This document shows positions 30,766-64,000 of a stretch of 64,000 bases of DNA, piece by piece; the stretch's first letter is position 1; every line of letters starts with the position of its first letter. Made by a program: the position numbers and the translations under genes. The notes below the pieces were generated by a model. It saw nothing but the letters and a program-made list of their open reading frames with translations. It did no database searches and was not told where the DNA came from. Source of the stretch: an uncultured virus (IMG/VR IMGVR_UViG_3300008952_000017) (lineage: Duplodnaviria; Heunggongvirae; Uroviricota; Caudoviricetes); the IMG/VR virus record IMGVR_UViG_3300008952_000017. The stretch is one strand, 5' to 3'.

Positions 30766-31156
30766 TTACGTCGCCCTCCTGGGCATCCTCTTCGCTTGAG
30801 ACTGCCTCTTCCGAGGGGGCCTCCACAGACTCGTCAGGAGCCTCTTCCAAGGGGCCTGCATCATCTGCATTTAGACGGGCGATGAGTTCCGCCTTAGTAC
30901 CTCTGACTGTCAGACCACGCTCTTGCAATATAGCACGCAGTTGTTTAACTGTCATCGACTCGTAATTAGGGGTCTCTTCAACGACCTCCTCCTCTGCTTC
31001 TTCAACAGGCTCTTCGACCATTAACTCCTCAGGGAATGGGTTGCCATCAACGGCGGCAGCCTCAGGGTTGAATACATCAACTTCCTCTTCCTCTGAAGAT
31101 ACTAGTTTCTTCACGACATTCCAGCCAGGGTGCAAACTCCATCTTCCCATCTTCAT
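30734..31156 (-). CDS. Acidic SAP-domain protein
   Basis: YESMTVKQLRAILQERGLTVRGTKAELIARL matches the SAP motif, flanked by Glu-rich disordered arms. Confidence 0.8.
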   Translation of the reverse strand: MKMGRWSLHPGWNVVKKLVSSEEEEVDVFNPEAAAVDGNPFPEELMVEEPVEEAEEEVVEETPNYESMTVKQLRAILQERGLTVRGTKAELIARLNADDAGPLEEAPDESVEAPSEEAVSSEEDAQEGDVSESGEQQEIS

Positions 31157-38605: not shown

Positions 38606-40003
38606 TCAGTTACCTCCCTGTAGAGCCTTTCCAGCCATTCGGTGGACATCATCCCATGACATCTCTGCCATGTCCTTGGTCTCAGGAACTGTCATCATCG
38701 GCACACTTGCCGACTTCTGTATGTCTTCGCCCTCTGAAATCGAGATGTTCTCGATTCTCTCACCTAGTGCGATGACAGCCTTCTGCAAGTCTACCAGTGG
38801 GCCGCGTGCATCGAACTCTGCTCGTGCTTTCTCAGACTCGTCAGAGTTAATCTCCTTCGTTAGTCGTATAGAGAACTCATTACCTAGTTCGGTCTTGAAC
38901 TTCTGCTCTAGAGCAGCCGCTTTGTAAACTTGGTAAGCCTCCTCAATCTGTGAGGAACTTACTGACTCGGGTGAAATGTAATCCTCAGCCTTAATGACGT
39001 TCTTGTTCCCGCTTGGGGCAGACCCGAAGTTCATCTTGGGTCTCTTACTTGAATCATCCTCACCAGCACCTTCGATGCTGCCTTGACCTCGGTGGTCGTA
39101 GCCGTGTGCACCTTCCTGTAGGTAAGCCTTCTCGACTCCCTCTAGGTTTTCTATGGACTCACGAGCAGCAGCAGGGTCGTAACCTGCTGACTTCACTGTG
39201 GTCTCTAGCCAGTTGAGATAATCCGTGGTAATCACGTCATCGAGGTCTTCGGACTTGTCCACTTTCTCGGACTTCTCCTTTGCCTCTTTATCTGTATCTT
39301 CTTTATCTGCATCCTCTGCCTTCTCCTTTGCCTCTTTGTCTTCGGATTTCTCCGCGTCAGTGGCTGCCTTAATAGCGGCCTCTGCGTCATCAGCATCGTC
39401 GAGTCTCTTAGAGAGTCTCTCCAGCACATTCTGCAACTCATTCATTGTTTCGCTTTCATCACTCATGTTTTCACCTTTCTTGGTTGTTGTATCCTCCTTA
39501 AGGATTCTAAATTGGGCCTCAGGGTTGATGCCCTTCTCGCAAATGGTCACCTCATGCAACTCCATACGGCGTATTTCACGATAGTCACCACGGGTGCTAT
39601 CGTTCTTGTTGACACGCTCGAAAGCCTGTCCACCGATGGAGAACGACTTAAGGTTCCCCTTGCGAATTTCTGCTGCGACCTCTCGGGCCTTCTCTATGTC
39701 ACTCCGTAGTTTGATGACTACGAACATGCCGGTGTCATCGACCTCCGACTTCCATATCCTACCTCCTGTGTCTGTATAATTAGGGATGACCTCCCCGACC
39801 TGTATATTGGAGTGTGCCAGTTGAACGTTCCTAAAACCTGGAGACTTCATGAACTTCCCGAATGCATCCTTAAGAGCATCCTTGGTGATGAGGTCTCCTT
39901 GCTTGTCTACCATCTCGACAGATGCATACCCTGCTACGATTAAGTCAGATGACCTAGATTTCACTAATATAGGATGCTCTATGGGAGCCTCCATCATAAG
40001 CAT
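38606..40003 (-). CDS. Prohead protease (HK97/caudovirus type) fused to acidic scaffold
   Basis: GYASVEMVDKQGD, LAHS, SFSIGG and LHEVTICEKGINPEA motifs. Charged coiled-coil C-terminal half. Confidence 0.9.
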   Translation of the reverse strand: MLMMEAPIEHPILVKSRSSDLIVAGYASVEMVDKQGDLITKDALKDAFGKFMKSPGFRNVQLAHSNIQVGEVIPNYTDTGGRIWKSEVDDTGMFVVIKLRSDIEKAREVAAEIRKGNLKSFSIGGQAFERVNKNDSTRGDYREIRRMELHEVTICEKGINPEAQFRILKEDTTTKKGENMSDESETMNELQNVLERLSKRLDDADDAEAAIKAATDAEKSEDKEAKEKAEDADKEDTDKEAKEKSEKVDKSEDLDDVITTDYLNWLETTVKSAGYDPAAARESIENLEGVEKAYLQEGAHGYDHRGQGSIEGAGEDDSSKRPKMNFGSAPSGNKNVIKAEDYISPESVSSSQIEEAYQVYKAAALEQKFKTELGNEFSIRLTKEINSDESEKARAEFDARGPLVDLQKAVIALGERIENISISEGEDIQKSASVPMMTVPETKDMAEMSWDDVHRMAGKALQGGN

Positions 40004-46000: not shown

Positions 46001-47081
46001 CCCCTTTGAGCACCTCACCCTTCCCACTATACAATACATTCCAAACAGTATCCTCAGGAACGCCATCCAACTCGAGTGCTAAATGCTCTAGGAACCTTTC
46101 TCGTTTCTGCGAATCCCTAAGTGTCGATTCGGGGAACTTCTCATCATAACCATGTAGCCATTTCTGATATCGGCGCTCATACAACCTAAAACGCATCTCC
46201 TTGGCTTGTTGCCCGATAACATTAGGGCTCAAGTGCCCGATGTCTTCCATAAACGAGTACAGTTTCGCTTCATCCCTTTGGGTCCCCTCTTTTCTAGAAT
46301 CTATCTCTCCAAAATGGACAACACCTTTAGGGGCACTATACCCTGTTGGTAAATGAGTCTTCAAAACCTCTTCAGCGTGTTCATCTAGTTCCTTGTCCCT
46401 TTTCCCACAAAAGAAGGGGGATTTTGGATTGTAATACTGCTGTAAGTGGTCATAGAGTATTGGCTTACTACTATTCTCAATAAAGAGATTGAGGAGCGCA
46501 AACTCATCAGGCAATGTGGCATCATCATTGTGGCTCGCCCTATCACTCATAAGTTCCCTCAATGCAGGTAGGTTCTTCTCATGTGCCAAAGGGTACCTAC
46601 TAGACTTCAACTGGTCATGGTAGTCTTCCATCAGTTTGTTGTAAGGGGAACTAGAACCATTCCCATGACAAGCCTGTTTGGTCCCGAATTGACCACTAGG
46701 TGTACTATCCGGTATGAAAGAACGATGTGGCGTTTTACTAGTAGGTGAAGAACTCCCTCTCCTGTAAGGGTCCGTGCCCATCCCCTCTGACTCTTTACGA
46801 GGGGTAGGCGGTGGTTTCATGTCAGCATAGATAGGAGGAACATGCACTGGTGCAGATATGGCCTTTTCCCTAGGCCCATCCTTCAATCTATGGTCTACCT
46901 CTACTTCTTGCTCCTTGAGGAGGTCTTCCATCTTCTGAAGGGTACTATCCCAATCAAAGTCAAGACCATTATTGATAAGATTGTGACAAGCGAAATAAAG
47001 GGCTGCTGCGTCCTCGATATCGGACGATATTTGAAATCTAGCCTTGTTGTTTAGGAAGAAGTCTTGAGGGGATTCACGCAC
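40041..47081 (-). CDS. 2346-aa protein with C-terminal degenerate ATP-dependent DNA ligase-like domain
   Basis: About 40700-41500: WVLSSWPKGERV (motif I position), FIVDC, LLDII, VMLRDADSTYMRGESRHPKWL, LDVIVL. The order matches ligase NTase+OB, but catalytic residues are altered. Confidence 0.7.
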   Translation of the reverse strand: MRESPQDFFLNNKARFQISSDIEDAAALYFACHNLINNGLDFDWDSTLQKMEDLLKEQEVEVDHRLKDGPREKAISAPVHVPPIYADMKPPPTPRKESEGMGTDPYRRGSSSPTSKTPHRSFIPDSTPSGQFGTKQACHGNGSSSPYNKLMEDYHDQLKSSRYPLAHEKNLPALRELMSDRASHNDDATLPDEFALLNLFIENSSKPILYDHLQQYYNPKSPFFCGKRDKELDEHAEEVLKTHLPTGYSAPKGVVHFGEIDSRKEGTQRDEAKLYSFMEDIGHLSPNVIGQQAKEMRFRLYERRYQKWLHGYDEKFPESTLRDSQKRERFLEHLALELDGVPEDTVWNVLYSGKGEVLKGGYLSIANSEGYDEMRDKSKQIGNYALEHELVMLPFDDMVEFMHIFHQMAARDHAKDFMSIDEENGVSYLLPVLPEYQTKVGRRDEMKLGVHYDDGGEVISYFGDGGPGVSLVPFSPTDIYRFGKQMRVVNKDSQYNYWTSPQDVQHNERRHIIRAPEADYHKRLFARMLREAHGYSREVGSSRAGGGRDAGRVPIYKFVKNYYAGQWDDIFDVPDIPLNSMSDVHIAIDNLRELDLSASLVNKMERFVDREYYGVGAETKPFQNRRAAYLRILSPWIDALDGVDVNEHDSTTGEEKSLPSKKKMGPFYHHRVRHTTTGGLGKERQDPICIMGQRYPHEYIALEPKHTELSDIREMPKPTDKDYEAFIEGLGEEIGPEFDQVLRDQHNEKPLLNISDMRHNPKYPILSRYLEEIWPESSVSEGQLQSSHDTVGGDDTSSDEDTPWQKLDLEGLLSLALIRHTGMLTDERIKVPYGHEKLSGSLRGIRFFQLPKEVAKGSLGYIPSNRASWSNSLTVTPHESAIFIVKLQDVMNISRIIPPNQTQIDKMSKEELEQFKAWQKNVEKRLLTRKEYKVPRDVTSQVSVGKETGKFVKHRNTNHQARVNAHAKLFSAGGRFNRNTSANHPDQSGRMRLNFLQNDGVDRPFQGGDGHATSWTGGVGASFTHRREGLGKEEQNLALRKTLDHKFRASLWGMGGTVPLHYENGVTVLEHPGPFLEMLQDIDKHGIPQHFLEHGSKFFEEGSLNNFFASLAGKRGKGAKQDYGIMPGWREAVTSGSFVDEDNKEISLPEHYYYPVIRSGGQFYLELEPTTVKGEGHIFTPKNFLHEGATTPMKEHWDTAKNVVDGKSPTLLDTALFLGDDDTEAMVDLPEHLGAREWEKKHKELTESDTVAILPSCIVKRPDGTFAAIGPHPAAFAGLWSDHLLAHPKKPGLASSMREARDELIGAAKERVDQDVTSRAGGIGPDNDILYRAGVNKGDLHLMIRDEVNLFTALQHSWPLVVANAAINEYKGSELSLDEMISKFEDEHLKIGPDYPNVVKGDDHGMMEETSRRRAIAHGLREEGYHFMQGDTLDMGHRKNILLNIYSRIRGTDAEDKWKSILGDAGITIKDGAAYFDYKSASNYHDYRIRSTSTFTQRGKDSEGKEYSHPLRRVSEETMTKDVTGHDILSNYLDPASPHRHISQVLEGIGIDGEMLESLNKSIELLKKRHGLPKDLPEETSVDKNMEYIKDVGHHVERQEPLHWHKEQDKNKTSTGATHKEMKFRERGRYARLSAALKSYFRIKQATPEGQSELFSSYGPLFKKPVAGRAGGSIMNIIARDLATAKDANGNLAFPEHANTLRAWNDRLSNSEKFDMLADFFHSRGKFANVVDKKEVIRTPVKPVPIGDNVSDDGMYDISRSKLPCHPFNYNILAHFGDGESLQHHPLIANLIAGSSLDSTPMDVPESQWPPWGRFESVPAGDPNVSEILQSFDVLTDMDLIYKEDKEEGRPIPVKAMHRIFSLEDLDTFKGLSGDWVLSSWPKGERVMVSKKGKRVSAYNSEKDSISLPSVVREGVRAAHKANFIVDCLWDGEILHLLDIIKAGEEDLGNNATKDRVRHLRANFSATEEVLIPAPINTKRVDTEGLSRAVKDLFKEKGVKQVMLRDADSTYMRGESRHPKWLLMTKEHQLDVIVLDVGGACLLGVGPLLADDAKRLGNRAVKHEGDYYMDVGTITKPGLEVGQCVTIKTSNVTAKGRDNLKVFTVRGPKYLKDAETNSTDSLQTLSLLSGEKNVDVPHNVRVSKGSIHIDLPSGHVVYDTEPYGHSFIVKAIDSPNLYLETLAESQRDYWEPVAAVLLRAEIETKKAKKANVVPEPPANHDKKPKKVLKPSERLLKDPELAKQLTTALESIEGLLKEKITWTGPKGLGIDFATPVESPSGPTENTEGYNLPDHDPGHRQEKGGDCWCGAKKGEDCKQGMGHKAQDCPEFSLPGKEEDKKHIKIPVS

Positions 47082-48473: not shown

Positions 48474-50435
48474 TCATCCTGGAAGGTTTGAGTCCTTCTT
48501 ATTGTTGAGGGGGTCTGCGGCCGTCTCTTGGGCATCCCGAACAGCATCTAAGGCTTGCTCGGTTATTGTCTTCTTAGGGCCACGTTGGTTTTTCTTACTC
48601 TTGGGTGAACCGGATAATTGGGTCTCTGAACTGACTGGTGCTGGCCCTCTATCTCGCGTGCCTGTACCCTCACCCAAACCAACCGCTCCTGATTTCTCCA
48701 TTGTCATAATCTCATTACCACGTGACCTCATCCTAGGAGGTTGTCCGGCAACAGTCTGTGCTCTCATTGCCCTATCAGCACCTGGAATCATTGGGGGTGG
48801 ACCACCTGCAGCGGCTTGGTTTTGATGAGGCATGGAACTAGGAGGTATGGCTGGAGCGCCCCCTCTACGTGGCGGCATAGCGCCTGGCATTCCACTAGCA
48901 GGTGGCATCATAGGAGGAGGTGCCGCAGTTGGTGGTGGGCCGGCTCCTTCAGGGGGAGCGCTAGGAGGAGCACTACCTTGTCCCTGTGGAGCCGCGCCCA
49001 TCTGCTGCTGTGGCTCAGGTTGCTTGTAGAAGAAACGGATATCTCTACCTGCATCCTCTGTGAGTTCGGGTTGGAAGCCGAGTTGAGCCATACGTTGTGC
49101 GATATTGACCTCCATCTCATCACGGCGTAAGCGAGTGACTTCATCTTCCTCCTCATTGGGGTGAAGGGTCATCTCCCAATCATTGACCCCCATTTCCTCG
49201 AAAATACGAGGGAAAATATCTCGACTATACAACTTCTGACCGAACTCAACTGCACGATTGGTGACAAGAATCTGCATGCCTTCATTGTTGAGGCCACCAC
49301 CCTTACCACTATCCATCATAAATATGTTTGACACACCGTAAAAGGCTGCTATTCGCATACGCAATTCATCACGAACTGGACCATACTGCATCTCATCTAA
49401 AGTGTCCATGAAACGCACGAACTCCACACGCCCCCTTCCGGTCGCTGATTCAATACCAACTTTGGGAATGTAGTTCGGGTCACGTTCCATCTTCTCTTCA
49501 GCGCCCTTCCAAAAAGAGGCTGTAGACTGGATATTGTCAGTAGTGATAGCGAGGACACCACGTGGAATCCTACGCTTCTGATATGCTAGATACATGTAAT
49601 TGTCCATAGCAGACAATGTCATGGCTTGTCGCCACATTGTAGCGACTGGACTCCTACCATAGAGTTTGGAAGGTTGATACTTAGAAATATGCACTACTTC
49701 TCCTTCAATGTAGTATTGGGTCTTACCTGAGCCAGCAGTGTTGATGAAATGAACATCTTGAAGTTCTAAGTTGCAAACCTCACACTTCTTCTCATCTCCT
49801 ATGAAGGGTTGAGTCTTATCCCTATGCACAGGGCAAATGAGATACCTACCTCCTCTCACTCCTCTCTTGTCGGCAACTATACGCATGAAGGTCGGGTCAC
49901 CACGAACTAACTCCTTTACCCGAAATAACTCAATTTCATTACTCTCCTTATTGATGTAGTACTCCTTCAAAAGGACAATGAATCCATCATCGACTATGTC
50001 CATATCCCATTCTACCTCTCTTAGGACATCAGTGAAAGATTGGTCCATGCCATTACGTTGTTTGATGAACCAGCGCGGGTATAGGATTTCATCAGCATTG
50101 GGGGTGTCGAAGTCAGTACCCCCACACATATGGCATTCCTTCACCTCGTGTTGATACTCCTCTTCACATTGCGAACATTTGAACTGAAACTTCTTCTTCC
50201 AATAATGACCTCTACGGAATATCTCCTGGCAAAGGGTATTGATGGTGGTCCTGAGAATAATACTCTCCTGCACTGTGGCATACAAAGCAGGTATGCTAAC
50301 ACCTTGTACTAAGACAGGTTCCTGTATGCCAGCCTTCCATAGAGGCATTATTGGCTCGGGAGTACTCTTGCGTCTGAAGGGGCTAGTTAACCTCTCAATG
50401 AATCGGGCTACTGGGCCAGTATCTTCTGCCATCAA
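48474..50435 (-). CDS. Portal protein with two Zn-ribbon inserts and Pro-rich tail
   Basis: EVVHI, LYGRSP, IPRGVL and RIAAFYGVSNIFM portal motifs, downstream of the terminase. CSQC..CHMC and CPVH..CEVC inserts. Confidence 0.85.
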   Translation of the reverse strand: MMAEDTGPVARFIERLTSPFRRKSTPEPIMPLWKAGIQEPVLVQGVSIPALYATVQESIILRTTINTLCQEIFRRGHYWKKKFQFKCSQCEEEYQHEVKECHMCGGTDFDTPNADEILYPRWFIKQRNGMDQSFTDVLREVEWDMDIVDDGFIVLLKEYYINKESNEIELFRVKELVRGDPTFMRIVADKRGVRGGRYLICPVHRDKTQPFIGDEKKCEVCNLELQDVHFINTAGSGKTQYYIEGEVVHISKYQPSKLYGRSPVATMWRQAMTLSAMDNYMYLAYQKRRIPRGVLAITTDNIQSTASFWKGAEEKMERDPNYIPKVGIESATGRGRVEFVRFMDTLDEMQYGPVRDELRMRIAAFYGVSNIFMMDSGKGGGLNNEGMQILVTNRAVEFGQKLYSRDIFPRIFEEMGVNDWEMTLHPNEEEDEVTRLRRDEMEVNIAQRMAQLGFQPELTEDAGRDIRFFYKQPEPQQQMGAAPQGQGSAPPSAPPEGAGPPPTAAPPPMMPPASGMPGAMPPRRGGAPAIPPSSMPHQNQAAAGGPPPMIPGADRAMRAQTVAGQPPRMRSRGNEIMTMEKSGAVGLGEGTGTRDRGPAPVSSETQLSGSPKSKKNQRGPKKTITEQALDAVRDAQETAADPLNNKKDSNLPG

Positions 50436-51859
50436 ATCACCTCAGACCCTATCGCGTCGGGGTCCTTTGAATCCCACGAGAGGACCTCTTGTTCATCAAC
50501 GTTCCACTCATTAAGGAGTTCTTCTGCTTTAGCATCCTTCCAATTCTCCCACTTGACCAAGCGGTATAACTCATCACGGCGCTTGACAATCGAGTCGCCG
50601 TTCTGTCCTCTCAAAGAAAGCAATTCCAACACGTGGCGTGCTTGGTCCTTCTTCAATCTTAGATGGGGGTAGGTCCCTTTGAGGAGTTTAGTGATATCAG
50701 CCTTGCTGTAAAACTGCAGTCTATGCTGACTCCTCTTACTACTCTTGTGAACCTTTAGGTCAAGTGCGAGGACACCACACCCCACCATATCATACAGATT
50801 CTCACAATGCACTCTACCCCTATCACCAGTAGCCACGAAACCAGCACGAGGTTCCCCTGTCTTACTGATAGTGATATAACCATCAGCATCAAGGAATCCG
50901 GCGGCATAAGCCCATGGGTCTTTAACCATCAATAGATTAGTGTCACCCTGCTTCTCCCAAGAACCGGCGTGTTTGTAGATATCGAAATCGGGACCGTACG
51001 TCTTCAGTAATGCACCCAATTGTTGCACAGAAGGAAGGCCAGTACTACGACCATCCCTCTCAGTCATGTGAGTGTGCATAGTCCGACTGTCCATAGGACC
51101 ATTGTAATCCAATAAGGCTTGAGCCATTATTAGGGACTCACTCTCTGCCTTTGTTAACTTAGCAGACTGATGGAGGGTGTGAGACCACATATCACGTGCG
51201 TCTTTCTTCATCTTAGAGGCGTCTGCCCATAATCGCAATTGCTCCTCATTGAAATCCCCATCTATCTGTGATAACTTAGTGAGAATACCGTTAGAATCCT
51301 CCCATTGGTTACACGCTTGAATGAGAGATACTTTCCTACGTTTAGAATGTTTGAGTAATGCTCTCAAATCCCTGTCATTAAGATTCATGCCTTTAATAGC
51401 AGATAGGTGGTCTTCTGCCCAAGGAATACTGGCTAAACCATTCTCTACCTCTTCAGTCTTCGCAATACGAATAGCCATAATTGCATCGTCAATATCATCC
51501 CTGTATTGCTTGTGGACTCTCCTCTTGAGACGTAAGTCCTTGACCACAGCAGAGGCTGATTTACCAAAAGACTCCTCGAACCAGCCAGCCAGTTTGATAC
51601 TATCTTCCTGCTCCTTGAGTTTTCTCCTCCTCTCCTCCTCCTTGGGAGTTTCCTGCTCAGAGGCTGCAGAGGTACCTTCTCCCAATACACCAGCCCCTGA
51701 GTTAGGAGTAGGCGCGTTGTCTCCAAATACTACTCCCCCAACACTTGTTTTGAGGAGAGGGTGCTGTTTCAGTTGCCTAATGACCCACGCCCTTTCAGGG
51801 TCTAACTCATTAGTCTCAGCATCGAAATCATCACCAATTAGAGTACTAGCCCAAGTCAA
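50432..51859 (-). CDS. Protein with C-terminal LAGLIDADG endonuclease-like domain
   Basis: YAAGFLDADGYITI...YPHLRLKKDQA motif, preceded by about 310 aa of helical N-terminus. Confidence 0.8.
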   Translation of the reverse strand: MTWASTLIGDDFDAETNELDPERAWVIRQLKQHPLLKTSVGGVVFGDNAPTPNSGAGVLGEGTSAASEQETPKEEERRRKLKEQEDSIKLAGWFEESFGKSASAVVKDLRLKRRVHKQYRDDIDDAIMAIRIAKTEEVENGLASIPWAEDHLSAIKGMNLNDRDLRALLKHSKRRKVSLIQACNQWEDSNGILTKLSQIDGDFNEEQLRLWADASKMKKDARDMWSHTLHQSAKLTKAESESLIMAQALLDYNGPMDSRTMHTHMTERDGRSTGLPSVQQLGALLKTYGPDFDIYKHAGSWEKQGDTNLLMVKDPWAYAAGFLDADGYITISKTGEPRAGFVATGDRGRVHCENLYDMVGCGVLALDLKVHKSSKRSQHRLQFYSKADITKLLKGTYPHLRLKKDQARHVLELLSLRGQNGDSIVKRRDELYRLVKWENWKDAKAEELLNEWNVDEQEVLSWDSKDPDAIGSEVI

Positions 51860-53289
51860 TCTATCAACCCCGCCATTAAAGTGTCCAAGTCAATGATTCT
51901 CTCACGGAACTCAGTAGTAGACCAATTAGCCAGTGCTAATGCTATTGCGAAATCGTCATGGCGGGCAATACTGTCTAGTTTACCAGTCTTGCTCATACCG
52001 AACATTATGAGTTCATGCTCTAATTGACTAATCACCTCACGAGACCTCTCATCTCCCCATGGTAAACGCATCTGCTCTCGCTCAAAACGCAATACCAAGC
52101 CCATAAGGAGACTCTCTCTCCTCTGCTTAGTGCTGATAAATGTCTTAATAGGTAGGTCTGTGTCTGCTCTCAATTCTGTAGCAAATACACGCTGGAAATG
52201 GTTGGCCTCAAGTTCTATTACATCTGGACGGAACTTGTTATTCAATCGCTGTATCTCAATAATCTGTGTACGAAAATCCATACCCTTACGACGAACCACA
52301 TGCACCAATTCTAGTAACTCAGGGCTGTCTGAAGGGCGACGCAACACAAGCATTACCGTGTAATCGGCTTGACGGTCGGATGATATCGCTGGGTCCCAAC
52401 CTATGAAATACTGACTATCATCATCCTCATGCCTTCTTTCTATGAGAGTAAGATATGGGTCTTTACAGGCATTTAGAACAGTGGAAGGGAAAAGGCTGGA
52501 CATATCATCCATAGGCTCACAGAGATATTCACGAGTGAAGGCTATGGCTGGCATATCCATCCTTCGAGCGTCCAGTGCCTCTAATGACCATCGCCATGGC
52601 CAAAGAGGTTCACCATTCTCCTTAATTGCAGGGTATGTCTCTACCTTGTATCCATCCCTCCTCTCCAACTCTGTATACAAATCAGTAGGAGTAAACGGTG
52701 TCCCCACAATGCACAGTTGAGATGTATGGTGCACAGTAGGAACTAGAACTTCATAGAACCAAGAGGCTACACGCTGCAATTCAGTGTCGGTAGTCCCCCA
52801 AAGAATATCATCGAGAAGAACAAGGTCAGGGTGAGCACCACGAACACCACCACCTACAGACTTAGCATTGATACGAGAACCATTTGTGAAACCAAAGAAA
52901 GTCTTGGACCAAGCATCCTTATCTTTCATCTTGGATAGCATAGGACTACCATCTATCAAATCATTGAGATTTCTCATGTGACGTATAGATTGGTCTAGAC
53001 TGTGACTGAAAATCATAGTATCAAGTTTAGGAGTGAATATGACCTTCCAAAGAACATAGCCAAGAAACAAGGTAGATTTCCCATGGTCGCGAGCCGCTTT
53101 GACACAATAGCGATTATGAGTGGAAAGGTTGTGATACCATTTGGCGTGGTGGTCGGCCAATTGCCATCCTAGAATCTCCTCGAAGAAGAACTTGAAGTCT
53201 TTTTTTGACATCTCCCAGTCGATGTCCTCAATGACCTCAGCGGAAACTGCTGGAGTGGCCATTCTCAAACCCCCTTGAGGATACCCCAC
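51856..53289 (-). CDS. terL: Terminase large subunit (start may be ATG 53262)
   Basis: Walker A ARDHGKST, Walker B RGAHPDLVLLDD, VGTP, FTREYLCE, nuclease GWDPA...DYT and HDDFAIALALA. Confidence 0.95.
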   Translation of the reverse strand: MGYPQGGLRMATPAVSAEVIEDIDWEMSKKDFKFFFEEILGWQLADHHAKWYHNLSTHNRYCVKAARDHGKSTLFLGYVLWKVIFTPKLDTMIFSHSLDQSIRHMRNLNDLIDGSPMLSKMKDKDAWSKTFFGFTNGSRINAKSVGGGVRGAHPDLVLLDDILWGTTDTELQRVASWFYEVLVPTVHHTSQLCIVGTPFTPTDLYTELERRDGYKVETYPAIKENGEPLWPWRWSLEALDARRMDMPAIAFTREYLCEPMDDMSSLFPSTVLNACKDPYLTLIERRHEDDDSQYFIGWDPAISSDRQADYTVMLVLRRPSDSPELLELVHVVRRKGMDFRTQIIEIQRLNNKFRPDVIELEANHFQRVFATELRADTDLPIKTFISTKQRRESLLMGLVLRFEREQMRLPWGDERSREVISQLEHELIMFGMSKTGKLDSIARHDDFAIALALANWSTTEFRERIIDLDTLMAGLID

Positions 53290-56817: not shown

Positions 56818-58151
56818 TGGTGTCCCCTCCGAGGCAACAATAGACCGATGGGATGAGCGCCCCAATATCGGGGGTCATCATCGGGGTCAACTTCTGTGGC
56901 TCCGGTGGGATGGCTCGTCGTCTGTCTGTGTGCGTTAGGGGTAGGCCTCTCATCATCATGCTCGGAATCTTCCAAACCTGATTTAGTAAGAGCACCCGAA
57001 CGCAACAGTCTCCTCATTTCTCGGACGAGCCATTTGAACTCAGTTAGGTCAGCGTCACTCAATTTGGCTTTCTTGAGTAGGTATTCGTATTCCTCTAATC
57101 TATCAAAAGATGCTAAAACGGAGGCTGATTGGAAGCCCGTCATACCATCAGTTGGCCCCCCTCCACCTCCTGATATATCGTGTCCACCAAGGGTTCTTGC
57201 TACTCCAGGGCGATTGATTTGCCTCCCAGTCGCGGGTGTCAAATCACTAGCGGTCTGATGGGGGTGTTCTATTCTAGGCCCCTTTGGTGGAGGTCTCATT
57301 ACATTCTCATAACCTTGCATACTAGAGAGATTGTAGGGACTAGTGTGAGTAGGGACATCCCTAGCGGCTTGGCTAGTCTCAACACCTGCCGAGACACTCC
57401 TCGGGTCAGGTGTTTGCTCCCTCTTTGTTTTACCACCTGCTTTCTGCCTCCATCCCTTAGTACGACCACCGTGACCTCGCCTCATTGCACCTTTTCTTCC
57501 TGCTGTGGTTCTCTCTGAAATGGTCTTCCTAGTCTCAGTGTAACCTTTCGGGTTCCTAGTACCCCTCACCATATTCTTGTCACCATAGATGCGAGAGAGA
57601 GATGTCTGCCCCATCTTACCCCTTCTCTTTGCAGTCTCCTTTCTCCTACTTCTAGTCCTCAAAGAGTGGATGTCTTCTGACTTACCATGCCTGCCCTTCA
57701 CCCCTTTGTGAGAACTACTCTTCTTCTTGCGAATAATATCAAGGCTCTCTTCCATAGAATGACCAGTCATGATGTTTACAGGATTACCACCCATCACAGA
57801 ACCACCACCGGTTTTAGCACCACTCGCAATATCCAAGGGATATCCAGTACTACTAGCGGGTCCTGTCATCTCGGAGAGTTTCTCATCATTCCTTTGATTG
57901 TCTCCTCGGGGCTTCTTCTTGTTAACCACTTTCACAGAGAGGTGCTGCAAACCAGCGATTTTCTTGTCGCGGTCTTCTTTCTCTTTGAGTTTCTTCTCTT
58001 CGAGTTTCTGCTTACTATCAGCATCATCCCTACCCAAATTACGGTCTTCTTCCATGAACTCAGGTGCTTCACGAGGGTTGAACCTCAAGCCTGCAGTACT
58101 GCCTTTATTGCCTTCACCGGCTTTATGCAAATCTTCACCAGCCATGCTCAC
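56814..58151 (-). CDS. Highly basic, disordered protein (possible DNA-binding core protein)
   Basis: 445 aa with a central K/R/G/S-rich tract, GGAGGGTGA SD near the start. Confidence 0.7.
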   Translation of the reverse strand: MSMAGEDLHKAGEGNKGSTAGLRFNPREAPEFMEEDRNLGRDDADSKQKLEEKKLKEKEDRDKKIAGLQHLSVKVVNKKKPRGDNQRNDEKLSEMTGPASSTGYPLDIASGAKTGGGSVMGGNPVNIMTGHSMEESLDIIRKKKSSSHKGVKGRHGKSEDIHSLRTRSRRKETAKRRGKMGQTSLSRIYGDKNMVRGTRNPKGYTETRKTISERTTAGRKGAMRRGHGGRTKGWRQKAGGKTKREQTPDPRSVSAGVETSQAARDVPTHTSPYNLSSMQGYENVMRPPPKGPRIEHPHQTASDLTPATGRQINRPGVARTLGGHDISGGGGGPTDGMTGFQSASVLASFDRLEEYEYLLKKAKLSDADLTEFKWLVREMRRLLRSGALTKSGLEDSEHDDERPTPNAHRQTTSHPTGATEVDPDDDPRYWGAHPIGLLLPRRGHQ

Positions 58152-58575
58152 CCTCCGGTATGATGTGAATTGTCTTCTCTAATCTCCTAAGGATTAAAGA
58201 ATAGAATCGGATAAGTTCGGTGGGTCCAGAGAATACACTGGAGAATGACACCAACATATCCGCCACTGAGTCAAAAGCAATCGCAAAACTCCTCCTCTCA
58301 TCAAAGACATCTTCTGTATCATTGTCCATCAATGATAGGAAGAAGGACTCTAACTCATGGACTAATTCAGTGTGATACCCTCGTAATGCGGCTATATCAG
58401 GATTGAGTGGGGCTACAGCAGAATACCATCTATCAACCACTTCATGCAGGAGAGAAAGAAATACCTTCATCTCCTTGCGATGGATAGGTCTGTCTTCTGT
58501 GAGCATGCTGGATAAACGGACATCCTTGCACATCAGGCGATGTACTGGCACTGGCCAAAACTCAGGTCTATGCAT
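58135..58575 (-). CDS. Hypothetical helical protein
   Basis: 146-aa ORF overlapping both neighbours. Confidence 0.6.
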   Translation of the reverse strand: MHRPEFWPVPVHRLMCKDVRLSSMLTEDRPIHRKEMKVFLSLLHEVVDRWYSAVAPLNPDIAALRGYHTELVHELESFFLSLMDNDTEDVFDERRSFAIAFDSVADMLVSFSSVFSGPTELIRFYSLILRRLEKTIHIIPEGEHGW

Positions 58576-59254
58576 CCACTATCTCCTCCTCTTCCTCCTC
58601 TAATAGTTTGGAGCGGATACGCTTCCAAACTTCAGGAGACTCCTTAGCGAGTTCTACTTTGAGGATATTGACTGTGTCTGCTTGGATATTCTGACTAATC
58701 TCACCCACGCTATCTTGCTGGAACTTAACCATGGTGGTGAGGGTATCACGAACTTCCTTGTGTAGGCTAACGATATTCTTAACATACGCAGGGTCATTCC
58801 TATCTGCGTCCTCCAAGAAAAGGTCTAACTCACCATTGAGACGTTCAAGATTCCCTCTCATGACATCAATTTCCTTACCAGTTTGAATTGAGATGAGATT
58901 AGCCGCACTCTTCTGTACGAGAGGTTTCAAGTGATGCTTCAAGTGATGGTAGATAGTAGACTCACTGCATTGGATAATATCGGCTATTGTCTCACTGGTC
59001 ATACCGCCAGTGAAATAGGCTTGTTCAACTTCAGCACGCTCAGGGTGAGTACACACTATACAGTCACTATTCGAGCCCATGTGGAACTCTCCCATGTGAT
59101 TGCGGAAGTGGCGGTCTGTTGTACCCTCACGCCACCCTAAATCTTTGTCTAGTTGCTTGGGTATGACGCTCCCCGAAAGTAATCCTTCCTCTAAATCATC
59201 CCTATCCCCGTGCTGGCAGAAAGCACAAGATTGACGTGTAACGCGCCCGCTCAC
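58568..59254 (-). CDS. Tandem Zn-HTH protein with coiled coil, putative terminase small subunit
   Basis: Two CxxCxH...HTH...HxxxH units (CAFCQH...RHFRNH and CIVCTH...HHLKHH) followed by helices. First gene of the operon leading to terL. Confidence 0.55.
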   Translation of the reverse strand: MSGRVTRQSCAFCQHGDRDDLEEGLLSGSVIPKQLDKDLGWREGTTDRHFRNHMGEFHMGSNSDCIVCTHPERAEVEQAYFTGGMTSETIADIIQCSESTIYHHLKHHLKPLVQKSAANLISIQTGKEIDVMRGNLERLNGELDLFLEDADRNDPAYVKNIVSLHKEVRDTLTTMVKFQQDSVGEISQNIQADTVNILKVELAKESPEVWKRIRSKLLEEEEEEIVDA

Positions 59255-59259
59255 GTATT

Positions 59260-59589
59260 ATGAGGAGGGGCATACACTCTAAGCCCTTTCGTTTGGGGCG
59301 GGCGAAAAAAGTCATGGGTGTACCCATCACGAGAGACACCGCAAATGGCATAAACAAGGCAATACAAGACGTTCTCACCATGAGCCATGTGACAAAAGAG
59401 GAACAAGTAAGGAGATTAACCACCTGTGAGACTTGTGAGCACAAGAGGGGGGCGAGATGCAACCTCTGTGGTTGCTTCATCAACTACAAATCTAAACTCA
59501 AAAACAGTGAGTGTCCATTAGGAAAGTGGTCAACCGTTCTCAGCGAGACGGCGATAGACAGTTCCAGTGACGAGGGTGGCACTGAATAA
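59260..59589 (+). CDS. Cys-rich protein (DUF6171-like; true start may be ATG about 59314)
   Basis: RRLTTCETCEH....CNLCGCF...K......CPLGKW is a recurring viral Cys motif. The only credible plus-strand gene in the window. Confidence 0.7.
   Translation: MRRGIHSKPFRLGRAKKVMGVPITRDTANGINKAIQDVLTMSHVTKEEQVRRLTTCETCEHKRGARCNLCGCFINYKSKLKNSECPLGKWSTVLSETAIDSSSDEGGTE
59277..59291 (-). promoter_or_regulatory. Possible archaeal BRE/TATA (CGAAAGGGCTTAGAG) for the packaging operon
   Basis: TTAGAG at about -28 to -23 from GTG 59254 with a purine-rich BRE-like element upstream and no SD. The TATA is imperfect. Confidence 0.35.
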
Positions 59590-59775
59590 GAATGCCATCG
59601 AATACATGAGTTCGTTTTGGTCCATATCATAAGCAGCGAAGGCGATAAGCAGGAAAGCGCCTAAAGCGAGACTTATCACCTGCACCATTATCATGTCCAC
59701 TAAGGAGGATTTCTTGATTTGAGTCATATCATACATTCCGAACATTGCACTGTTAATCATATCACTTGGTGGCAT
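59530..59775 (-). CDS. Small two-TM membrane protein
   Basis: 81 aa with two hydrophobic stretches and a basic C-terminus (YRR). Last gene of the GTPase operon. Confidence 0.7.
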   Translation of the reverse strand: MPPSDMINSAMFGMYDMTQIKKSSLVDMIMVQVISLALGAFLLIAFAAYDMDQNELMYSMAFLFSATLVTGTVYRRLAENG

Positions 59776-59779
59776 TATA

Positions 59780-60409
59780 TCACGTCCTTATTCCCAAAGC
59801 GCCTCTGAAGAGACTACCAAACCCAGTACCCACGCTCTCCATCATTCCTGGATTGGCCATTGCTGCACTGAGTGCACCCGACATTAGGTTCTGTTGAACT
59901 GTGTTTAGAATTGCTTGTTGTTGCTGCATTGCTTGGTCTCTAGTCATAGTTGCAGCATTCTTGAGACTATTAGACTCCATTGTGACACTATCTGCTGTGG
60001 GGGCATTCTCAAAATTACTGAAATCAAATGCTAAATTGCCGTCCTCAGTCTCTGCTATAGCGACATTCTTGAGAACATCAACAGTTGCAAGAGCACTGAC
60101 TTTGTAAAGTAAAGATACTAACATCTCCATATTTGGGCCAGCAAGCCATCTATCTACTGGCACGCTCGTCTGTATGAGAGCAGCCATCACTTCCAAATCG
60201 CTAGGTGGTGCTAACTCAGTAGCAGGATTCAAACCCATCGCTCCCATCATACCTGCCCCCAATTGTTGATAGGGGTCACCATAGCCAGCATGCCCGAAAG
60301 TATTTTGAGCGTATCCATTGACTGCGGGGAGCATCTGCTGATTGTTGGGTAAACCCAAAGACAGCGCCCCTGTTTGTGGTTGAGGTGCACTATTAAATCC
60401 GAGTGTCAC
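59780..60409 (-). CDS. Hypothetical protein, Q/G/M-rich, with C-terminal amphipathic helix
   Basis: 209 aa coupled to neighbours, ends in VGTGFGSLFRGALG. Confidence 0.7.
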   Translation of the reverse strand: MTLGFNSAPQPQTGALSLGLPNNQQMLPAVNGYAQNTFGHAGYGDPYQQLGAGMMGAMGLNPATELAPPSDLEVMAALIQTSVPVDRWLAGPNMEMLVSLLYKVSALATVDVLKNVAIAETEDGNLAFDFSNFENAPTADSVTMESNSLKNAATMTRDQAMQQQQAILNTVQQNLMSGALSAAMANPGMMESVGTGFGSLFRGALGIRT

Positions 60410-61389
60410 TCTACCACCTCCTCCAATACCTGTTCTAAAGGCGGAGGGGCCGTTTGGCTTAACAGTTCCGAGAGACCCATAGTTGCGGATGGGGTTGGCA
60501 AATCCATATTTATTGGCGGGGCACTGATTCTCGCATCTGTAATCATTCGAGCATTACCACCCGTTTGGAACTGTCTCATATCAAATATCACTATTGTTTG
60601 CTCATTCTCACCCAGTGCATTCTTCAAACGAACTACTGGGATATTGTCCTTCTTTAGCATCTCGAAGAAGGGCTGGTAAACAGAGAGTAGAGGTGGTGTA
60701 TTATCCCTACCAGCCAATCCGGCCACAGGAACAGTAACCATGGACACCCCTTTGTTCAACCTACTCTTGAGACTACTAGTACTACCCCCTTCCTCTTCTT
60801 GTTCCGCTCTCTCCCACTTAGTTAGAAGATGATAAAGATGAAGATGCTCAGGACAATAAGTGGCTCTTAGAATACGACCACCAGTTACTCTCTCACGTGC
60901 TTGAAAGGCTTGAGGGTTACCTGTGACTGGGTCCTTGAAATACAACTCCCACAAGGATTTGCCACTTTCCTCATCCTTAATCATCTCATACACATTGCCG
61001 GCTGCTTGAATTAACTCATCCACATCGCACCCCTCAATACAACAGCGGGTGGCATCTCCCACAAACTGATACTTACCACCGAACCAATACCTTCGTGGTG
61101 AGAATATGCTTCTCCTAGTAGGACTCAGTAATTTGTAGGCTTGACGAATATCGGACCTTCTAGCCTTCTTGGGATTCCCATGGTTAGACGGATAGAAATT
61201 AACCTTAGGTATCTCGATGCTTCGTTGCAAAGCAGCGTCTTGCATGTAGGTCTGCGCTTGAGCGAGACTTTGCAACTGCGCTAAAGGCACCTGTGAGTTC
61301 GCTGCTAGATGCCTCATTTCTTGACTTGTCTGAGTAGACAAGGGCTGTGCTTGCGTTTGTACAAAGGGGTTCACCTGATTCATTACCAT
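60406..61389 (-). CDS. Hypothetical protein with split Zn-binding motif
   Basis: 327 aa starting 4 nt after the GTPase stop. CCIEGC ... YCPEH motifs and a Q-rich N-terminus. Confidence 0.7.
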   Translation of the reverse strand: MVMNQVNPFVQTQAQPLSTQTSQEMRHLAANSQVPLAQLQSLAQAQTYMQDAALQRSIEIPKVNFYPSNHGNPKKARRSDIRQAYKLLSPTRRSIFSPRRYWFGGKYQFVGDATRCCIEGCDVDELIQAAGNVYEMIKDEESGKSLWELYFKDPVTGNPQAFQARERVTGGRILRATYCPEHLHLYHLLTKWERAEQEEEGGSTSSLKSRLNKGVSMVTVPVAGLAGRDNTPPLLSVYQPFFEMLKKDNIPVVRLKNALGENEQTIVIFDMRQFQTGGNARMITDARISAPPINMDLPTPSATMGLSELLSQTAPPPLEQVLEEVVE

Positions 61390-61393
61390 TATA

Positions 61394-62113
61394 TCACCAA
61401 CTGAGCATCTCCAGTAAGGTCTGCTCGACGTTCCAGCCTATCTTCGTAGCCATCATGTTGACTCGGCAGGGGATGCCTGCTTTTTGGAGTTTCACCATAG
61501 AAGGTCGATAAGGGTCGAATATATCGTGTTCCCGCAATCTCTTCGACTGCCAAAGTATGTTGGCCTTGTTGTCCCACCAAAGGTCTGCCTTGTTGGCTAT
61601 AACCCACACTTGTGAGGGAGCATAATTCCGGCCTTTCCACCATGTCTTAAAACTCCTATATCTCCATTTCCTGTCGATTAAGGAATCGACGAGAAAGTCC
61701 AAACCGCCCACTGCGTCGATTATATCGCCGTTGCTCCCAGCCTTCCCTCTGTGGTCCACCATGAACACGACTATCTCTACCTGTCTTTCGACCATGTCGT
61801 CTATCCAAAGATTCCAAAATCTCTGCTCTCCGCCTATGTCCGCTGAATGAACTACCCTCTTTTCCCCGTGCCATCTCACTCGCTTCCTTGTGGCCTTGGG
61901 GAGTACGTGACCCCCTCCTATCAATCGAGCATCGTGAACGGTCCTCTCTTCCACGTCTGCCATCTCGCCTGGCGTTGTCATGAACTGGTCTAGAGTAGTC
62001 TTCCCAACCATCGTGGGGCCGTATATACCAATCCTTCTCGGTTTTAGGAAGTTGTATAATTCCTTGCCATACACTACAGCCCCCATTAGGATTGAGCCAC
62101 TTAATCCTACCAT
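61394..62113 (-). CDS. Arf/Arl-like small GTPase
   Basis: G1 GPTMVGKTT, G2 ERT, G3 DIGGEQRFWNLW, VVFMVD, G4 ANKAD, G5 MATKIG.NV, N-terminal hydrophobic/amphipathic helix. Confidence 0.85.
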   Translation of the reverse strand: MVGLSGSILMGAVVYGKELYNFLKPRRIGIYGPTMVGKTTLDQFMTTPGEMADVEERTVHDARLIGGGHVLPKATRKRVRWHGEKRVVHSADIGGEQRFWNLWIDDMVERQVEIVVFMVDHRGKAGSNGDIIDAVGGLDFLVDSLIDRKWRYRSFKTWWKGRNYAPSQVWVIANKADLWWDNKANILWQSKRLREHDIFDPYRPSMVKLQKAGIPCRVNMMATKIGWNVEQTLLEMLSW

Positions 62114-62121
62114 TCACACCA

Positions 62122-62376
62122 TCACCCTCTTATGGAATCTATCCTTGCTTGACACCAGTCAATGAACCAATCCACCGTCCTGTCCCAAACACTCACCTCA
62201 AATTCCATCTCAACCCAAGATGTGATGAATACAGCAGCGCCAGTAAATAGTAAGGTGCGGGCCCAACCCCAACCACGTTCGTAGTAGTTATCTAGAGTAT
62301 TCTGCCAATGCAAAGCCTTCAATGTCGCTTCAGTTGCATCGTCACTTGGAGTATGAAATAGCCACCCCATAGTCAA
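62122..62376 (-). CDS. Small Trp-rich single-TM membrane protein
   Basis: 84 aa with hydrophobic segment TLLFTGAAVFITSWV and an amphipathic C-terminal helix. Confidence 0.7.
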   Translation of the reverse strand: MTMGWLFHTPSDDATEATLKALHWQNTLDNYYERGWGWARTLLFTGAAVFITSWVEMEFEVSVWDRTVDWFIDWCQARIDSIRG

Positions 62377-62963
62377 CCCTTCTTGGCGAACTTACCGGTC
62401 TTGTCACGAGCATCGTGCTTATTACTCTGACTCACCGCCGTCGTTACACCTAAGTCAATACCGCCACCGGTTTGAGCCCCATGGCTAGGGGGTGAGTTTG
62501 ATAGGTCCATGCCCTGCACCAAATAATCAGCGGCTCCATGAATGTCTCCCTGTAACAACTCACTCTCCTTCTGATATTCCAACAATTGGAGTTGTCTCAT
62601 GAATTGGGCCTCTTGGAGTCTCATCTCTACCTCCATTTGTTTGTTAGCCATCTGTTGTTGCATTCCCTGCATGCGCCGTGACCTCTCCCTATCCATGCGA
62701 GCGAATGAAGCCTTGTGGTCTAAAGATTGCTGCATGAGTAATTTGTAGAGGACGAAAGACATCCCCTGTAAAGTAAAAGCGGCCATTGCGTAAGTGAAAG
62801 CATTAGTTTGCACATCACCTGCGGACTTCAACCAAAGACCGGCATCAAATACGGCAATAGTCGCCCCCACTAGTATTGAAACAAAGGTAATGAGGCCTAA
62901 GACTCTAATCTCATCGGCGTTTGTATCACTCGGCTGCATAGGGGGCATGTTAGACATAGACAT
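62373..62963 (-). CDS. Two-TM membrane protein with Gln-rich coiled coil
   Basis: 196 aa with two hydrophobic helices then RMDRERSRRMQGMQQQM... coiled coil. First gene after the AT-rich gap. Confidence 0.75.
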   Translation of the reverse strand: MSMSNMPPMQPSDTNADEIRVLGLITFVSILVGATIAVFDAGLWLKSAGDVQTNAFTYAMAAFTLQGMSFVLYKLLMQQSLDHKASFARMDRERSRRMQGMQQQMANKQMEVEMRLQEAQFMRQLQLLEYQKESELLQGDIHGAADYLVQGMDLSNSPPSHGAQTGGGIDLGVTTAVSQSNKHDARDKTGKFAKKG

Positions 62964-63097
62964 GTTATCTTCCTAAGCATCGCACGTATACCATACACAT
63001 ATACCTACTGCTCTCAGACTGACCGTGTTCTTGATTTTCTTCTCTTTTTCTTTATTGAGAACTAAAGTAATTATTGTTAGTGAATAGAATAAGAATA
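62964..63097. promoter_or_regulatory. AT-rich intergenic region, likely promoter/terminator zone for the GTPase operon
   Basis: Largest non-coding gap in the window. T-tracts on the plus strand and TATATG about 40 nt upstream of ATG 62963 on the minus strand. Confidence 0.45.
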
Positions 63098-64000
63098 TCA
63101 AGAATCATCAGCAGTTGGGTCCTCACCTAGTACGTTTGCGAGAAGATTACCGCCCTCGGGTATAGGTGACGGTTTAGGTGCTGACATGAATGCCGATAGA
63201 CTGTCTTCATCTATTGAGGCTTCCTGGGCTGCACCATGATAGTGATGGTCACGTTGCCATGATGACAACTTGCTACGCGCATCTTCCGCATGCTGGTCAC
63301 GGAGAGTGTGATAGAGGTCGGGTCTTATACCACAAGTTTGTCTTACTTGTGCATTAGGATTATCAGGGTGGGGCCAGTGAGTGATATCATTGCTGTCATC
63401 CCCTTCTGTAAATCTAGGCAATAGTGGTATTCTCACGTGAAGATGCCCCGACTGTAACCCACTCAACATATCCTGTGCAAATTGCTCACCGATAGTGGTA
63501 TTCTTATCAGGGTGATTGGCAGTTTGTGGAGGGATACCATTGACAGTCAAATCTCGGTCCGTCAACAACCCCTGCTTACCATAATTATCTCCCCCAGGCG
63601 TCTCAATCTCATGATTCCTGGCTGCTGATAGTCTACGCACATAGTCATGTAAAGACCTAATATGCATGTTAGTGACTTTCTCAGGGTCTTCCCAATGGGT
63701 GGTTAATTCGACTATATACTTGGCGCTTTTTCTCATCTCTTCACTGTGTTGCTCAGGATTCGCATTTATCTTCCTAGCCAAGTGTGCCACCCGCCTTCCC
63801 TTTGTAGATAGAGTCCATTTCGACTCCCCATCCACCAGCCTAAGGCCACCCAACTCCCCTGCATCATCAAGACTCGGGTCTAATCTCAACATGGAGTTTT
63901 GGAACCTTTCCCATTGGTGTGTGACTTCAGACTTCTCCTTTAACGCCTTGTTAATATCTCTGATAACATAGGCTACTTGGGATGCAGTGGTAAGGGAGGC
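63098..64000 (-). CDS. Hypothetical protein, N-terminus beyond the window
   Basis: The frame stays open upstream of ATG 63892 to the window end (ASLTTASQVAYVIRDINKALKEK...). Confidence 0.7.
   Translation of the reverse strand, partial: ASLTTASQVAYVIRDINKALKEKSEVTHQWERFQNSMLRLDPSLDDAGELGGLRLVDGESKWTLSTKGRRVAHLARKINANPEQHSEEMRKSAKYIVELTTHWEDPEKVTNMHIRSLHDYVRRLSAARNHEIETPGGDNYGKQGLLTDRDLTVNGIPPQTANHPDKNTTIGEQFAQDMLSGLQSGHLHVRIPLLPRFTEGDDSNDITHWPHPDNPNAQVRQTCGIRPDLYHTLRDQHAEDARSKLSSWQRDHHYHGAAQEASIDEDSLSAFMSAPKPSPIPEGGNLLANVLGEDPTADDS

Follow-up and report, generated by a model that had tools for sequence, protein, structure and literature searches.

The 64,000-nt stretch of DNA analyzed here (the window, from the uncultured virus IMG/VR IMGVR_UViG_3300008952_000017) carries a viral cassette of six genes around a divergent Arf-like small GTPase. 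The cassette is real, deeply conserved and undescribed in the literature that we found, and it is a variation on small-GTPase membrane systems whose five partner families have no known relatives. Its function we infer: it might be a GTP-switched module that alters the host membrane at a set time, late disruption of that membrane or virion egress being the leading role, a reading that we place first while holding it at somewhat less than even confidence.

All six genes, named g1 to g6 in the order of transcription, lie on the minus strand: g1 (62373-62963; an open reading frame (ORF) of 196 amino acids (aa)) encodes a membrane protein, g2 (62122-62376; 84 aa) a protein with an acidic N-terminal domain, a transmembrane segment and a Trp-rich tail, g3 (61394-62113; 239 aa) the Arf-like small GTPase, g4 (60406-61389; 327 aa) a soluble orphan with a putative metal site, g5 (59780-60409; 209 aa) a protein with a Q/G/M-rich N-terminus and a Gly-rich C-terminus, and g6 (59530-59775; 81 aa) a protein with two transmembrane segments. 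The junctions from g1/g2 to g5/g6 are, in order, a 4-nt overlap, an 8-nt gap, a 4-nt gap, a 4-nt overlap and a 4-nt gap; a sequence-only reading of this DNA had described six co-oriented genes with gaps of at most 8 nt, and the coordinates and all five junctions agree with it. The cassette is a conserved, virus-specific block and more than a product of chance, since all six genes are found as intact ORFs, in the same order, in dozens of other viral contigs. Searches of g1 to g5 against Pfam and PHROG at E ≤ 0.1 gave no match except two insignificant rows for g1 (E 0.088-0.098), the family profiles of g1, g2, g5 and g6 reached no better than E 0.22 against the Protein Data Bank (PDB), and PADLOC returned no meaningful match on the cassette.

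The conservation of the block was assessed in IMG/VR, where 161 relatives turned up in a scan with g3; synteny was counted in the 80 best loci (55-87% identity), on which all six proteins as well as the flanking ORFs were tested by tblastn. The proteins g3, g4 and g5 were present in all 80 loci, g2 in 78, g6 in 77 and g1 in 76, with gene order and strand identical in every locus and median junction lengths of 1-9 nt across the relatives. Where g1 (four loci) or g2 (two loci) was missed, the locus begins at a contig end a short way ahead of the GTPase (less than 400 nt for g1), and one of the three loci missed by tblastn for g6 (L061) holds an 85-aa ORF that shares the VDMVMVQL motif of g6 at the expected g6 position. 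In a distant lineage (L081-L084), in which g3 is 31-34% and g4 29-34% identical, g3 still adjoins g4. Comparison by hhalign detected in L084 counterparts in the same order of g1 (probability 97.6%), of g5 (81.7%) and, weakly, of g2 (42%, E 2.6e-4), and the g5 counterpart shares the C-terminal motif of g5. The order g1-g5 is retained at 31-34% GTPase identity. An ORF that follows g5 in L084 was considered as a relative of g6 and was rejected, as the profile comparison fails; other small membrane or secreted ORFs are found there. Lack of synteny among related viruses had been named as an observation that would overturn the sequence-only reading, and the block was found to be kept both in the 80 loci and, as g1-g5, in the distant lineage.

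The central gene product, g3, is a small GTPase of the Ras superfamily (TRAFAC), as judged by its G1, G3 and G4 motifs and its G-domain fold. G1 reads GPTMVGKT (GxxxxGKT), G3 DIGGEQ (DxxG) and G4 NKAD (NKxD). In the family alignment (A1), conservation is at least 90% at G32, G37, K38, N174 and K175 and complete at D92 and G95, and a conserved Trp sits 11 residues past the G3 Asp, a spacing that we take to be a signature of Arf, Sar and G-alpha proteins. The AlphaFold2 (AF2) model of g3 (pLDDT 86.3, pTM 0.84) places a helix at residues 5-23 ahead of strand 1. With this model Foldseek gave at least 500 matches at E ≤ 0.001, the listed rows being small GTPases with Rab, Rho and Ras first. Upon re-alignment of the best 1000 chains, the first eight rows were all Arf-family proteins, as were 13 of the first 14, the ninth row being SRbeta (structural Z: Arl8b 17.7, Arl1 17.4, Arf6 17.2, Arf1 16.8, GerdArfR1 16.7, SRbeta 16.5, HodArfR1 16.4); the top Arf-family rows superpose with a root-mean-square deviation of 2.4-2.9 Å over 159-164 residues at 15-21% identity. 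The top 14 rows span Z 15.8-17.7 and the Rab and Rag rows reach at most 15.7; the Arf margin is only 1-2 Z units. An independent search of 48,161 chains was led by Arf6 (Z 16.9), SRbeta (16.5) and Sar1 (16.5), and the single AF2 model of g3 aligns best to GTP-bound Arf structures.

Profile searches point in the same direction. The best match of the g3 family profile in the PDB was 8oun_A (E 4.5e-6), followed by Arl8A/B, Arl10 and Rab33B, and the alignment to this chain takes in its N-terminal helix; 8OUN is GerdArfR1, an Asgard Arf-family GTPase, according to a preprint (bioRxiv 10.1101/2024.02.28.582541). A single-sequence phmmer search of the PDB with g3 gave no match at E ≤ 10. In the ESM Atlas the nearest neighbors of g3 are viral clusters; among the bacterial clusters that follow, Arf is the commonest Pfam domain. 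The sequence-only reading had called the central gene an Arf-like small GTPase, and Arf-family proteins indeed proved nearest by profile, by fold and by language-model features. The protein is very divergent, with Arf, Arl and ArfR proteins nearest and Sar1 and SRbeta close behind. These families (Arf/Arl and Asgard ArfR, i.e., GerdArfR1 (8OUN/8OUM), HodArfR1 (8OUK), Arl8, Arl1, Arf6, Arf1, Arl6, Arl3 and Arl2; Sar1; SRbeta) share with g3 the G-domain fold, a helix at the N-terminus (predicted in g3) and G1, G3 and G4 motifs. In contrast to the Arf family, however, g3 has no Pfam Arf match and a variable catalytic Gln, both weighed below, carries inserts that make it about 60 residues longer than the aligned Arf chains of about 160-170 residues, and is encoded by a tailed virus beside orphan partners.

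All 16 P-loop-bearing members of the family possess a hydrophobic/aromatic N-terminal extension of 28-33 residues with a hydrophobic moment (muH) of 0.27-0.54, and for the N-terminal helix of g3 in the window 4.8% of shuffles reach the observed moment. A transmembrane anchor at this place was rejected, given that no 19-residue segment of g3 reaches a hydropathy of 1.6 and the stretch is not long enough to cross a membrane. In several public gene calls g3 begins at Met10 (230 aa). Residues 1-9 are conserved at the protein level across the relatives, and for this reason the longer form, which completes the N-terminal helix, appears more likely.

A sensitive phmmer search of 1.84 billion representatives with g3 returned 73 proteins, most of which resemble members of the family or fragments of them by length and matched range. 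No cellular source of g3 was detectable among them. In this respect g3 differs from the GTPases of giant viruses, which are likewise virus-encoded switches of the Ras superfamily (mimivirus Rab, 5XC5, Z 15.2 to the g3 model) but are recognizable Rab homologs from eukaryotic hosts. A word-indexed search with g3 gave 443 clusters at 90% identity, and in the 120 of them that were listed Pfam domains are lacking and the name is either missing or "hypothetical protein". Five long proteins among the 73 (P0054, P0066, P0067, P0068 and P0073; 281-573 aa) match g3 at residues 160-199 alone, where g3 is Trp-rich around its NKAD motif, in 5-7 repeated stretches each, and look like an unrelated Trp-rich repeat family. 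The sole match in a GTDB species representative (L085, NZMJ01000140.1, 51% identity) lies on an 8.7-kb contig of a Maricaulis sp. metagenome-assembled genome; it is probably a mis-binned viral fragment and uninformative on the host.

Three of the partners were expected to be membrane proteins, and g1, g2 and g6 do carry transmembrane segments by family-averaged hydropathy. The protein g1 has one strong segment (residues 17-47), followed by a second, less hydrophobic one (about 57-76) that does not reach the threshold; the earlier attribution of two segments to it is therefore supported only in part. Beyond these, g1 has a helical region rich in Q, M, E and R, carries the conserved motif LxLG and ends in a basic tail (alignment A3), and no Pfam, PHROG or PDB match was found for it. 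The description of g2 as Trp-rich with a single transmembrane segment is accurate (9.5% Trp; segment 35-58); its acidic N-terminal domain carries the conserved motif FxTPxDDxxExTL, and its family profile matched nothing in the PDB. The last protein, g6, is indeed a small protein with two segments (21-52 and 54-75), ends in a short charged C-terminus (YRRLAENG) and measures 74-85 aa among the relatives. It is holin-like in size and topology only, and topology by itself does not define a holin. Among its 17 homologs (alignment A6), DUF6320 is the sole family that was matched by more than one member (2 of 17).

The two soluble partners are orphans as well. In the alignment of g4 (A2), 67 positions are invariant, including C116 and the stretch C179-P-E-H182-L-H184-L-Y-H187, and the C-terminus is Q/P-rich and disordered. 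The Cys/His cluster is a putative metal (zinc) site. The Zn motif that had been read in g4 is thus retained in C116, C179, H182, H184 and H187, whereas the second Cys of its CxxxxC varies. The AF2 model of g4 has a pLDDT of 63.5 (70-87 in the core); in fold searches its best matches were at Z 5.0 (a connexin), within the chance range for helical arrangements, and, by Foldseek, at E 0.69, and no Pfam or PDB sequence match was found. Two further candidates for g4 were set aside: CxC6, weak in 6 of 18 members with a best E of 0.0092, was taken as noise of the Cys pattern, and the first ESM Atlas match (score 0.84) lies below the level of trust. The protein g5 combines a Q/G/M-rich N-terminus of low complexity, in keeping with its earlier description as Q/M-rich, with a conserved central domain (PPSExE...DRW), a Q-rich helix (alignment A5) and a Gly-rich C-terminus with the conserved motif GxGxGSxxRGxxGxR. 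It has no family or PDB match.

The best row for g5, the STI1 DP domain (E 0.27), is the sole PDB hint for its Met/Gln-rich C-terminal region and could point to a role in targeting or chaperoning, in which an SRbeta-like g3 and a client-binding, Met/Gln-rich g5 would deliver viral membrane proteins (g1, g2, g6 or others). This would agree with the tie of SRbeta with Arf and Sar1 among the best structures of g3 (Z 16.5). However, the STI1 match is far from significance, the fold searches with g4 found no SRX or longin-like partner, and the N-terminus of g3, with about 13 consecutive hydrophobic residues, is too short for an anchor of the SRbeta type, so that we regard such a delivery function as very unlikely.

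In the mechanism that we propose, which beyond an Arf-like GTPase encoded with membrane proteins we infer throughout, GTP-bound g3 would, like Arf, Sar1 and ArvA, embed its N-terminal helix in the cytoplasmic membrane of the host. Its localization or activation would fall to the membrane proteins g1 and g2, and g4, with its putative Cys/His metal site, and g5 would act as a regulator, like a GTPase-activating protein (GAP) or a guanine nucleotide exchange factor (GEF), or as an effector. The output would be a timed alteration of the host membrane, in the first place a late disruption that releases the virions, with the holin-sized g6 as the membrane-breaching part. Egress is ranked first because the cassette shares a strand block with packaging and structural genes and lies behind a TATA-like element of its own, and because it ends in a holin-sized protein with two transmembrane segments. 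It is also ranked first because no known lysis gene was recognized elsewhere: no lysis-category PHROG was matched among the 38 ORFs of the window, no holin or endolysin family of Pfam among 25 of those 38, and none at E ≤ 1e-5 among the 56 ORFs of G001, a complete relative of 118,155 bp. The absence of a recognizable holin-endolysin pair from the window, remarked upon in the sequence-only reading, agrees with these scans. A last reason is that the egress machinery of archaeal tailed viruses was called "completely uncharacterized" in a 2024 review (PMC10791045).

A comparison with phage lysis cassettes reveals both likeness and difference. Like holin-based cassettes, the viral block includes a small protein (g6) that has two transmembrane segments and is charged at its C-terminus, and it lies, compactly, upstream of packaging genes; in lambdoid phages, the lysis cassette stands directly upstream of the terminase genes. 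Unlike them, it has no match to a holin or endolysin family, and no lysis cassette is known to contain a small GTPase. In its most specific form the egress reading would be one of GTP-timed lysis, in which the Arf-like switch docks on viral membrane proteins and triggers g6 together with the two orphan effectors, so that a wall-less cell bounded by an S-layer is ruptured; Marine Group II hosts are not known to possess a wall polymer for which an endolysin would be needed. This form is possible but doubtful. If true, it would replace the holin-endolysin logic of bacteriophages in a virus-host pair that ranks among the most abundant of the ocean.

The region in front of g1 (62964-63097, minus strand) is an AT-rich intergenic region of 134 nt (67% A+T) and a probable promoter. 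It contains the 100 nt with the highest A+T fraction in the window (0.71), whereas five other gaps of the window are larger (177-414 nt) at 50-56% A+T. It was thus rightly singled out as the most AT-rich gap, but it is not the only sizeable one. Some 40-45 nt ahead of the start of g1, near 62996-63005, there is a TATA-like element (GGTATATGTG). Among 64 unique 80-nt sequences upstream of g1 in related loci, 48 contain the pattern, with 38 occurrences at -50 to -41; in the controls, it was present in 43 of 320 coding windows and in 312 of 1280 shuffles. This positionally conserved element may well represent the cassette's own promoter. Contigs from four RNA-labelled libraries (one of them merely guessed to be RNA) cover parts of g1 to g6 and bridge four of the five junctions (g6/g5, g4/g3, g3/g2 and g2/g1), the strand and ends of the transcripts being invisible in such contigs, DNA carry-over being possible and the runs having been chosen because they hold a stretch of the cassette. 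The flanks 58000-59400 and 62623-64000 are uncovered; this was rejected as a sign of transcript ends, because the runs were selected by words from 59200-63200.

Several observations weigh against the reading of the cassette as an Arf-like, GTP-switched module of late egress. The membership of g3 in the Arf family is unproven, because the Pfam Arf model and the catalytic Gln do not bear it out: Pfam Arf (PF00025) does not match the g3 of the window at E ≤ 0.1, gives weak matches to 8 of the 17 family members (E 0.0048 at best) and was found in none of the four related viral records G001-G004 (108-118 kb, the records behind L006, L053, L077 and L084) in a six-frame search. A hallmark of Arf proteins is DxGGQ with its catalytic Gln. 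This position is E in g3 and Q, E, A, H or D across the family, one member having P for a G; since the residue varies, GTP hydrolysis may be slow, partner-dependent or lost in some members. Neither g4 nor g5 has a recognizable GAP, GEF or coat fold, and g6 gave sub-threshold matches alone in Pfam and PHROG (DUF6320, E 0.0036; phrog_26275, E 0.003) and none to a holin family. That expression is late is an assumption, and in G001 nine ORFs of the same strand lie ahead of the cassette. The RNA-library contigs, with their selected runs and possible DNA carry-over, are weak evidence of cassette transcription. Moreover, g3 had no match among 50,697 phage records, so the haloviruses with the nearest capsid lack the GTPase, although haloarchaeal tailed viruses are reported to lyse their hosts (PMC10791045). 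This lack rules the cassette out as an egress system common to all archaeal tailed viruses.

The nearest functional analog is the ArvA/ArvB/ArvC operon (OapA/B/C) of Haloferax volcanii and other Euryarchaeota, in which the Arf-like ArvA with its N-terminal amphipathic helix drives vesicle formation together with ArvB and the Zn-ribbon protein ArvC (PMC10927574). The operon pairs an Arf-like GTPase with a metal-binding protein, as do g3 and g4 with its putative metal site. The viral cassette differs by three extra membrane proteins and a Q/M-rich protein, and it is a viral block, while ArvA is cellular and said to be vertically inherited (PMC10927574). Models of ArvB (PF09846) and ArvC (PF09845) matched none of the four related viral records at E ≤ 1, the ArvB control being positive in Haloferax volcanii; a match to an already characterized host operon, considered in the sequence-only reading as a possible objection, was therefore not obtained with these models.

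This precedent, the closest in Euryarchaeota, suggests a non-lytic remodelling of the membrane, by vesicle budding or as a membrane-associated platform for assembly or replication, in the manner of ArvA/B/C or of Sar1/Arf coats. The Arf-like g3 with its N-terminal helix and the Cys/His cluster of g4 fit such a role, and the long low-complexity or helical regions of g5 and g1 could provide a scaffold. However, the ArvB and ArvC models find nothing in the related records, g4 has no coat-like or SepF-like fold, and tailed viruses are unenveloped, so that a need for vesicles is not evident; on balance, we consider remodelling without lysis unlikely.

The virus itself is, judging from its genes, a magrovirus-like tailed virus of marine archaea with a genome of roughly 100 kb. 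All 11 matches of its capsid protein are to archaeal tailed viruses, the best being the Haloarcula viruses HVTV-1, HCTV-1 and HCTV-5 (33-34% identity). PolB was found in all of G001-G004, and G001 also encodes a thermosome-type chaperonin (E 6.8e-105), an RFC-like clamp loader and ERCC4 and PD-(D/E)XK nucleases. For magroviruses, Philosof et al. report a halovirus-like capsid protein (about 33% identity), a linear genome of about 100 kb, archaeal-type replication genes and a thermosome, and say that all 26 encode MCM (PMC5434244). Pfam MCM was found in none of G001-G004, for which reason we write "magrovirus-like" rather than magrovirus; either the first-pass filter misses a helicase that has diverged too far, or these records form a distinct lineage. 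Near-identical cassette DNA was found in marine or seawater runs, with 15 studies among the matches listed.

Magroviruses are described as infecting Marine Group II archaea, which belong to the surface ocean's most abundant microbes (PMC5434244). The conserved six-gene cassette with its recognizable switch constitutes a concrete and clonable candidate for the egress of archaeal tailed viruses. It also brings an Arf-type GTPase into the euryarchaeal virosphere; such GTPases are otherwise tied to membrane traffic in eukaryotes and Asgard archaea and to vesiculation by ArvA. Its abundance, with 443 clusters of the g3 family and near-identical DNA in runs of at least 15 marine studies, adds to its interest. 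The word "GTPase" is absent from the main text of the magrovirus papers PMC5434244 and PMC11706807, whose supplementary tables may annotate cassette genes, and by title and abstract no paper on a virus-encoded GTPase was found for archaeal viruses or Poseidoniales.

Directly after the cassette, in all 80 loci, follows a helix-turn-helix (HTH) protein (58568-59254, minus strand, 228 aa), a candidate small terminase or regulator whose N-terminus bears a Cys/His motif and whose tail is acidic and helical; it matches HTH_20 (E 6.9e-5) and a PHROG small terminase at only E 0.021. Further along the same strand lie TerL (51856-53289), an HNH-endonuclease-like ORF of 475 aa (50432-51859; phrog_5046, E 1.4e-8) between TerL and portal, the portal (48474-50435), the prohead protease (38606-40003) and the HK97-type capsid protein (37458-38603). 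The cassette had been placed next to the packaging genes: TerL does lie downstream on the same strand, but about 6 kb away, with five ORFs and one convergent ORF in between.

This shared strand block, in which the candidate small terminase, TerL, portal and capsid genes are found, would also accommodate a function in the particle or its assembly, the cassette products being internal, ejection or packaging-accessory proteins that are delivered with the DNA or act with the terminase. Some phage ejection proteins are membrane-active. None of the six proteins, however, matches a PHROG structural or packaging family, and particles of tailed viruses are not known to contain small GTPases that carry an N-terminal helix of the Arf type, although no search was aimed at this; we thus assign very little probability to a virion role.

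Upstream of g1 the related genomes diverge: the region directly ahead of the cassette is highly variable, and its ORF was found in 2 of the 80 loci. Such variability is common near host-interaction genes and could indicate superinfection exclusion or host takeover, in which the cassette would alter or block surface or transport functions of the host, for example to prevent secondary infection or to divert host signalling. Small membrane proteins beside a switch protein would fit exclusion systems in general. The strong conservation of the cassette as a core, however, sets it apart from exclusion genes, which are typically accessory, PADLOC did not match it, and it lies upstream of packaging and structural genes on their strand, which leaves exclusion or takeover quite unlikely as its role. 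Egress, as the output of the GTP-switched module, remains the function that we place first.

The downstream end of the cassette is marked by a convergent Cys-rich ORF on the plus strand (59260-59589, 109 aa), which overlaps the 3' end of g6 and matches DUF6171 (Pfam, E 1.5e-6) and phrog_13558 (PHROG, E 7.6e-14). It is kept in 67 of the 80 loci and is absent from one sublineage.

An endonuclease VII-like small ORF (30734-31156, minus strand) lies in the tail region, and a tape-measure-like protein as well as giant tail-fibre or virion proteins are also encoded on the cassette strand. Two giant ORFs, one of 5549 aa (10741-27390) and one of at least 2657 aa that runs off the window (1-7971), contain repeated domains that match tail-fibre, baseplate or virion-structural families of PHROG, and a third of 2346 aa without a match (40041-47081) lies between the portal-side genes and the prohead protease; all three are on the minus strand. 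In G001 the counterparts of the giant ORFs measure 5100 and 2395 aa, and an ORF of 3038 aa stands directly upstream of the cassette.

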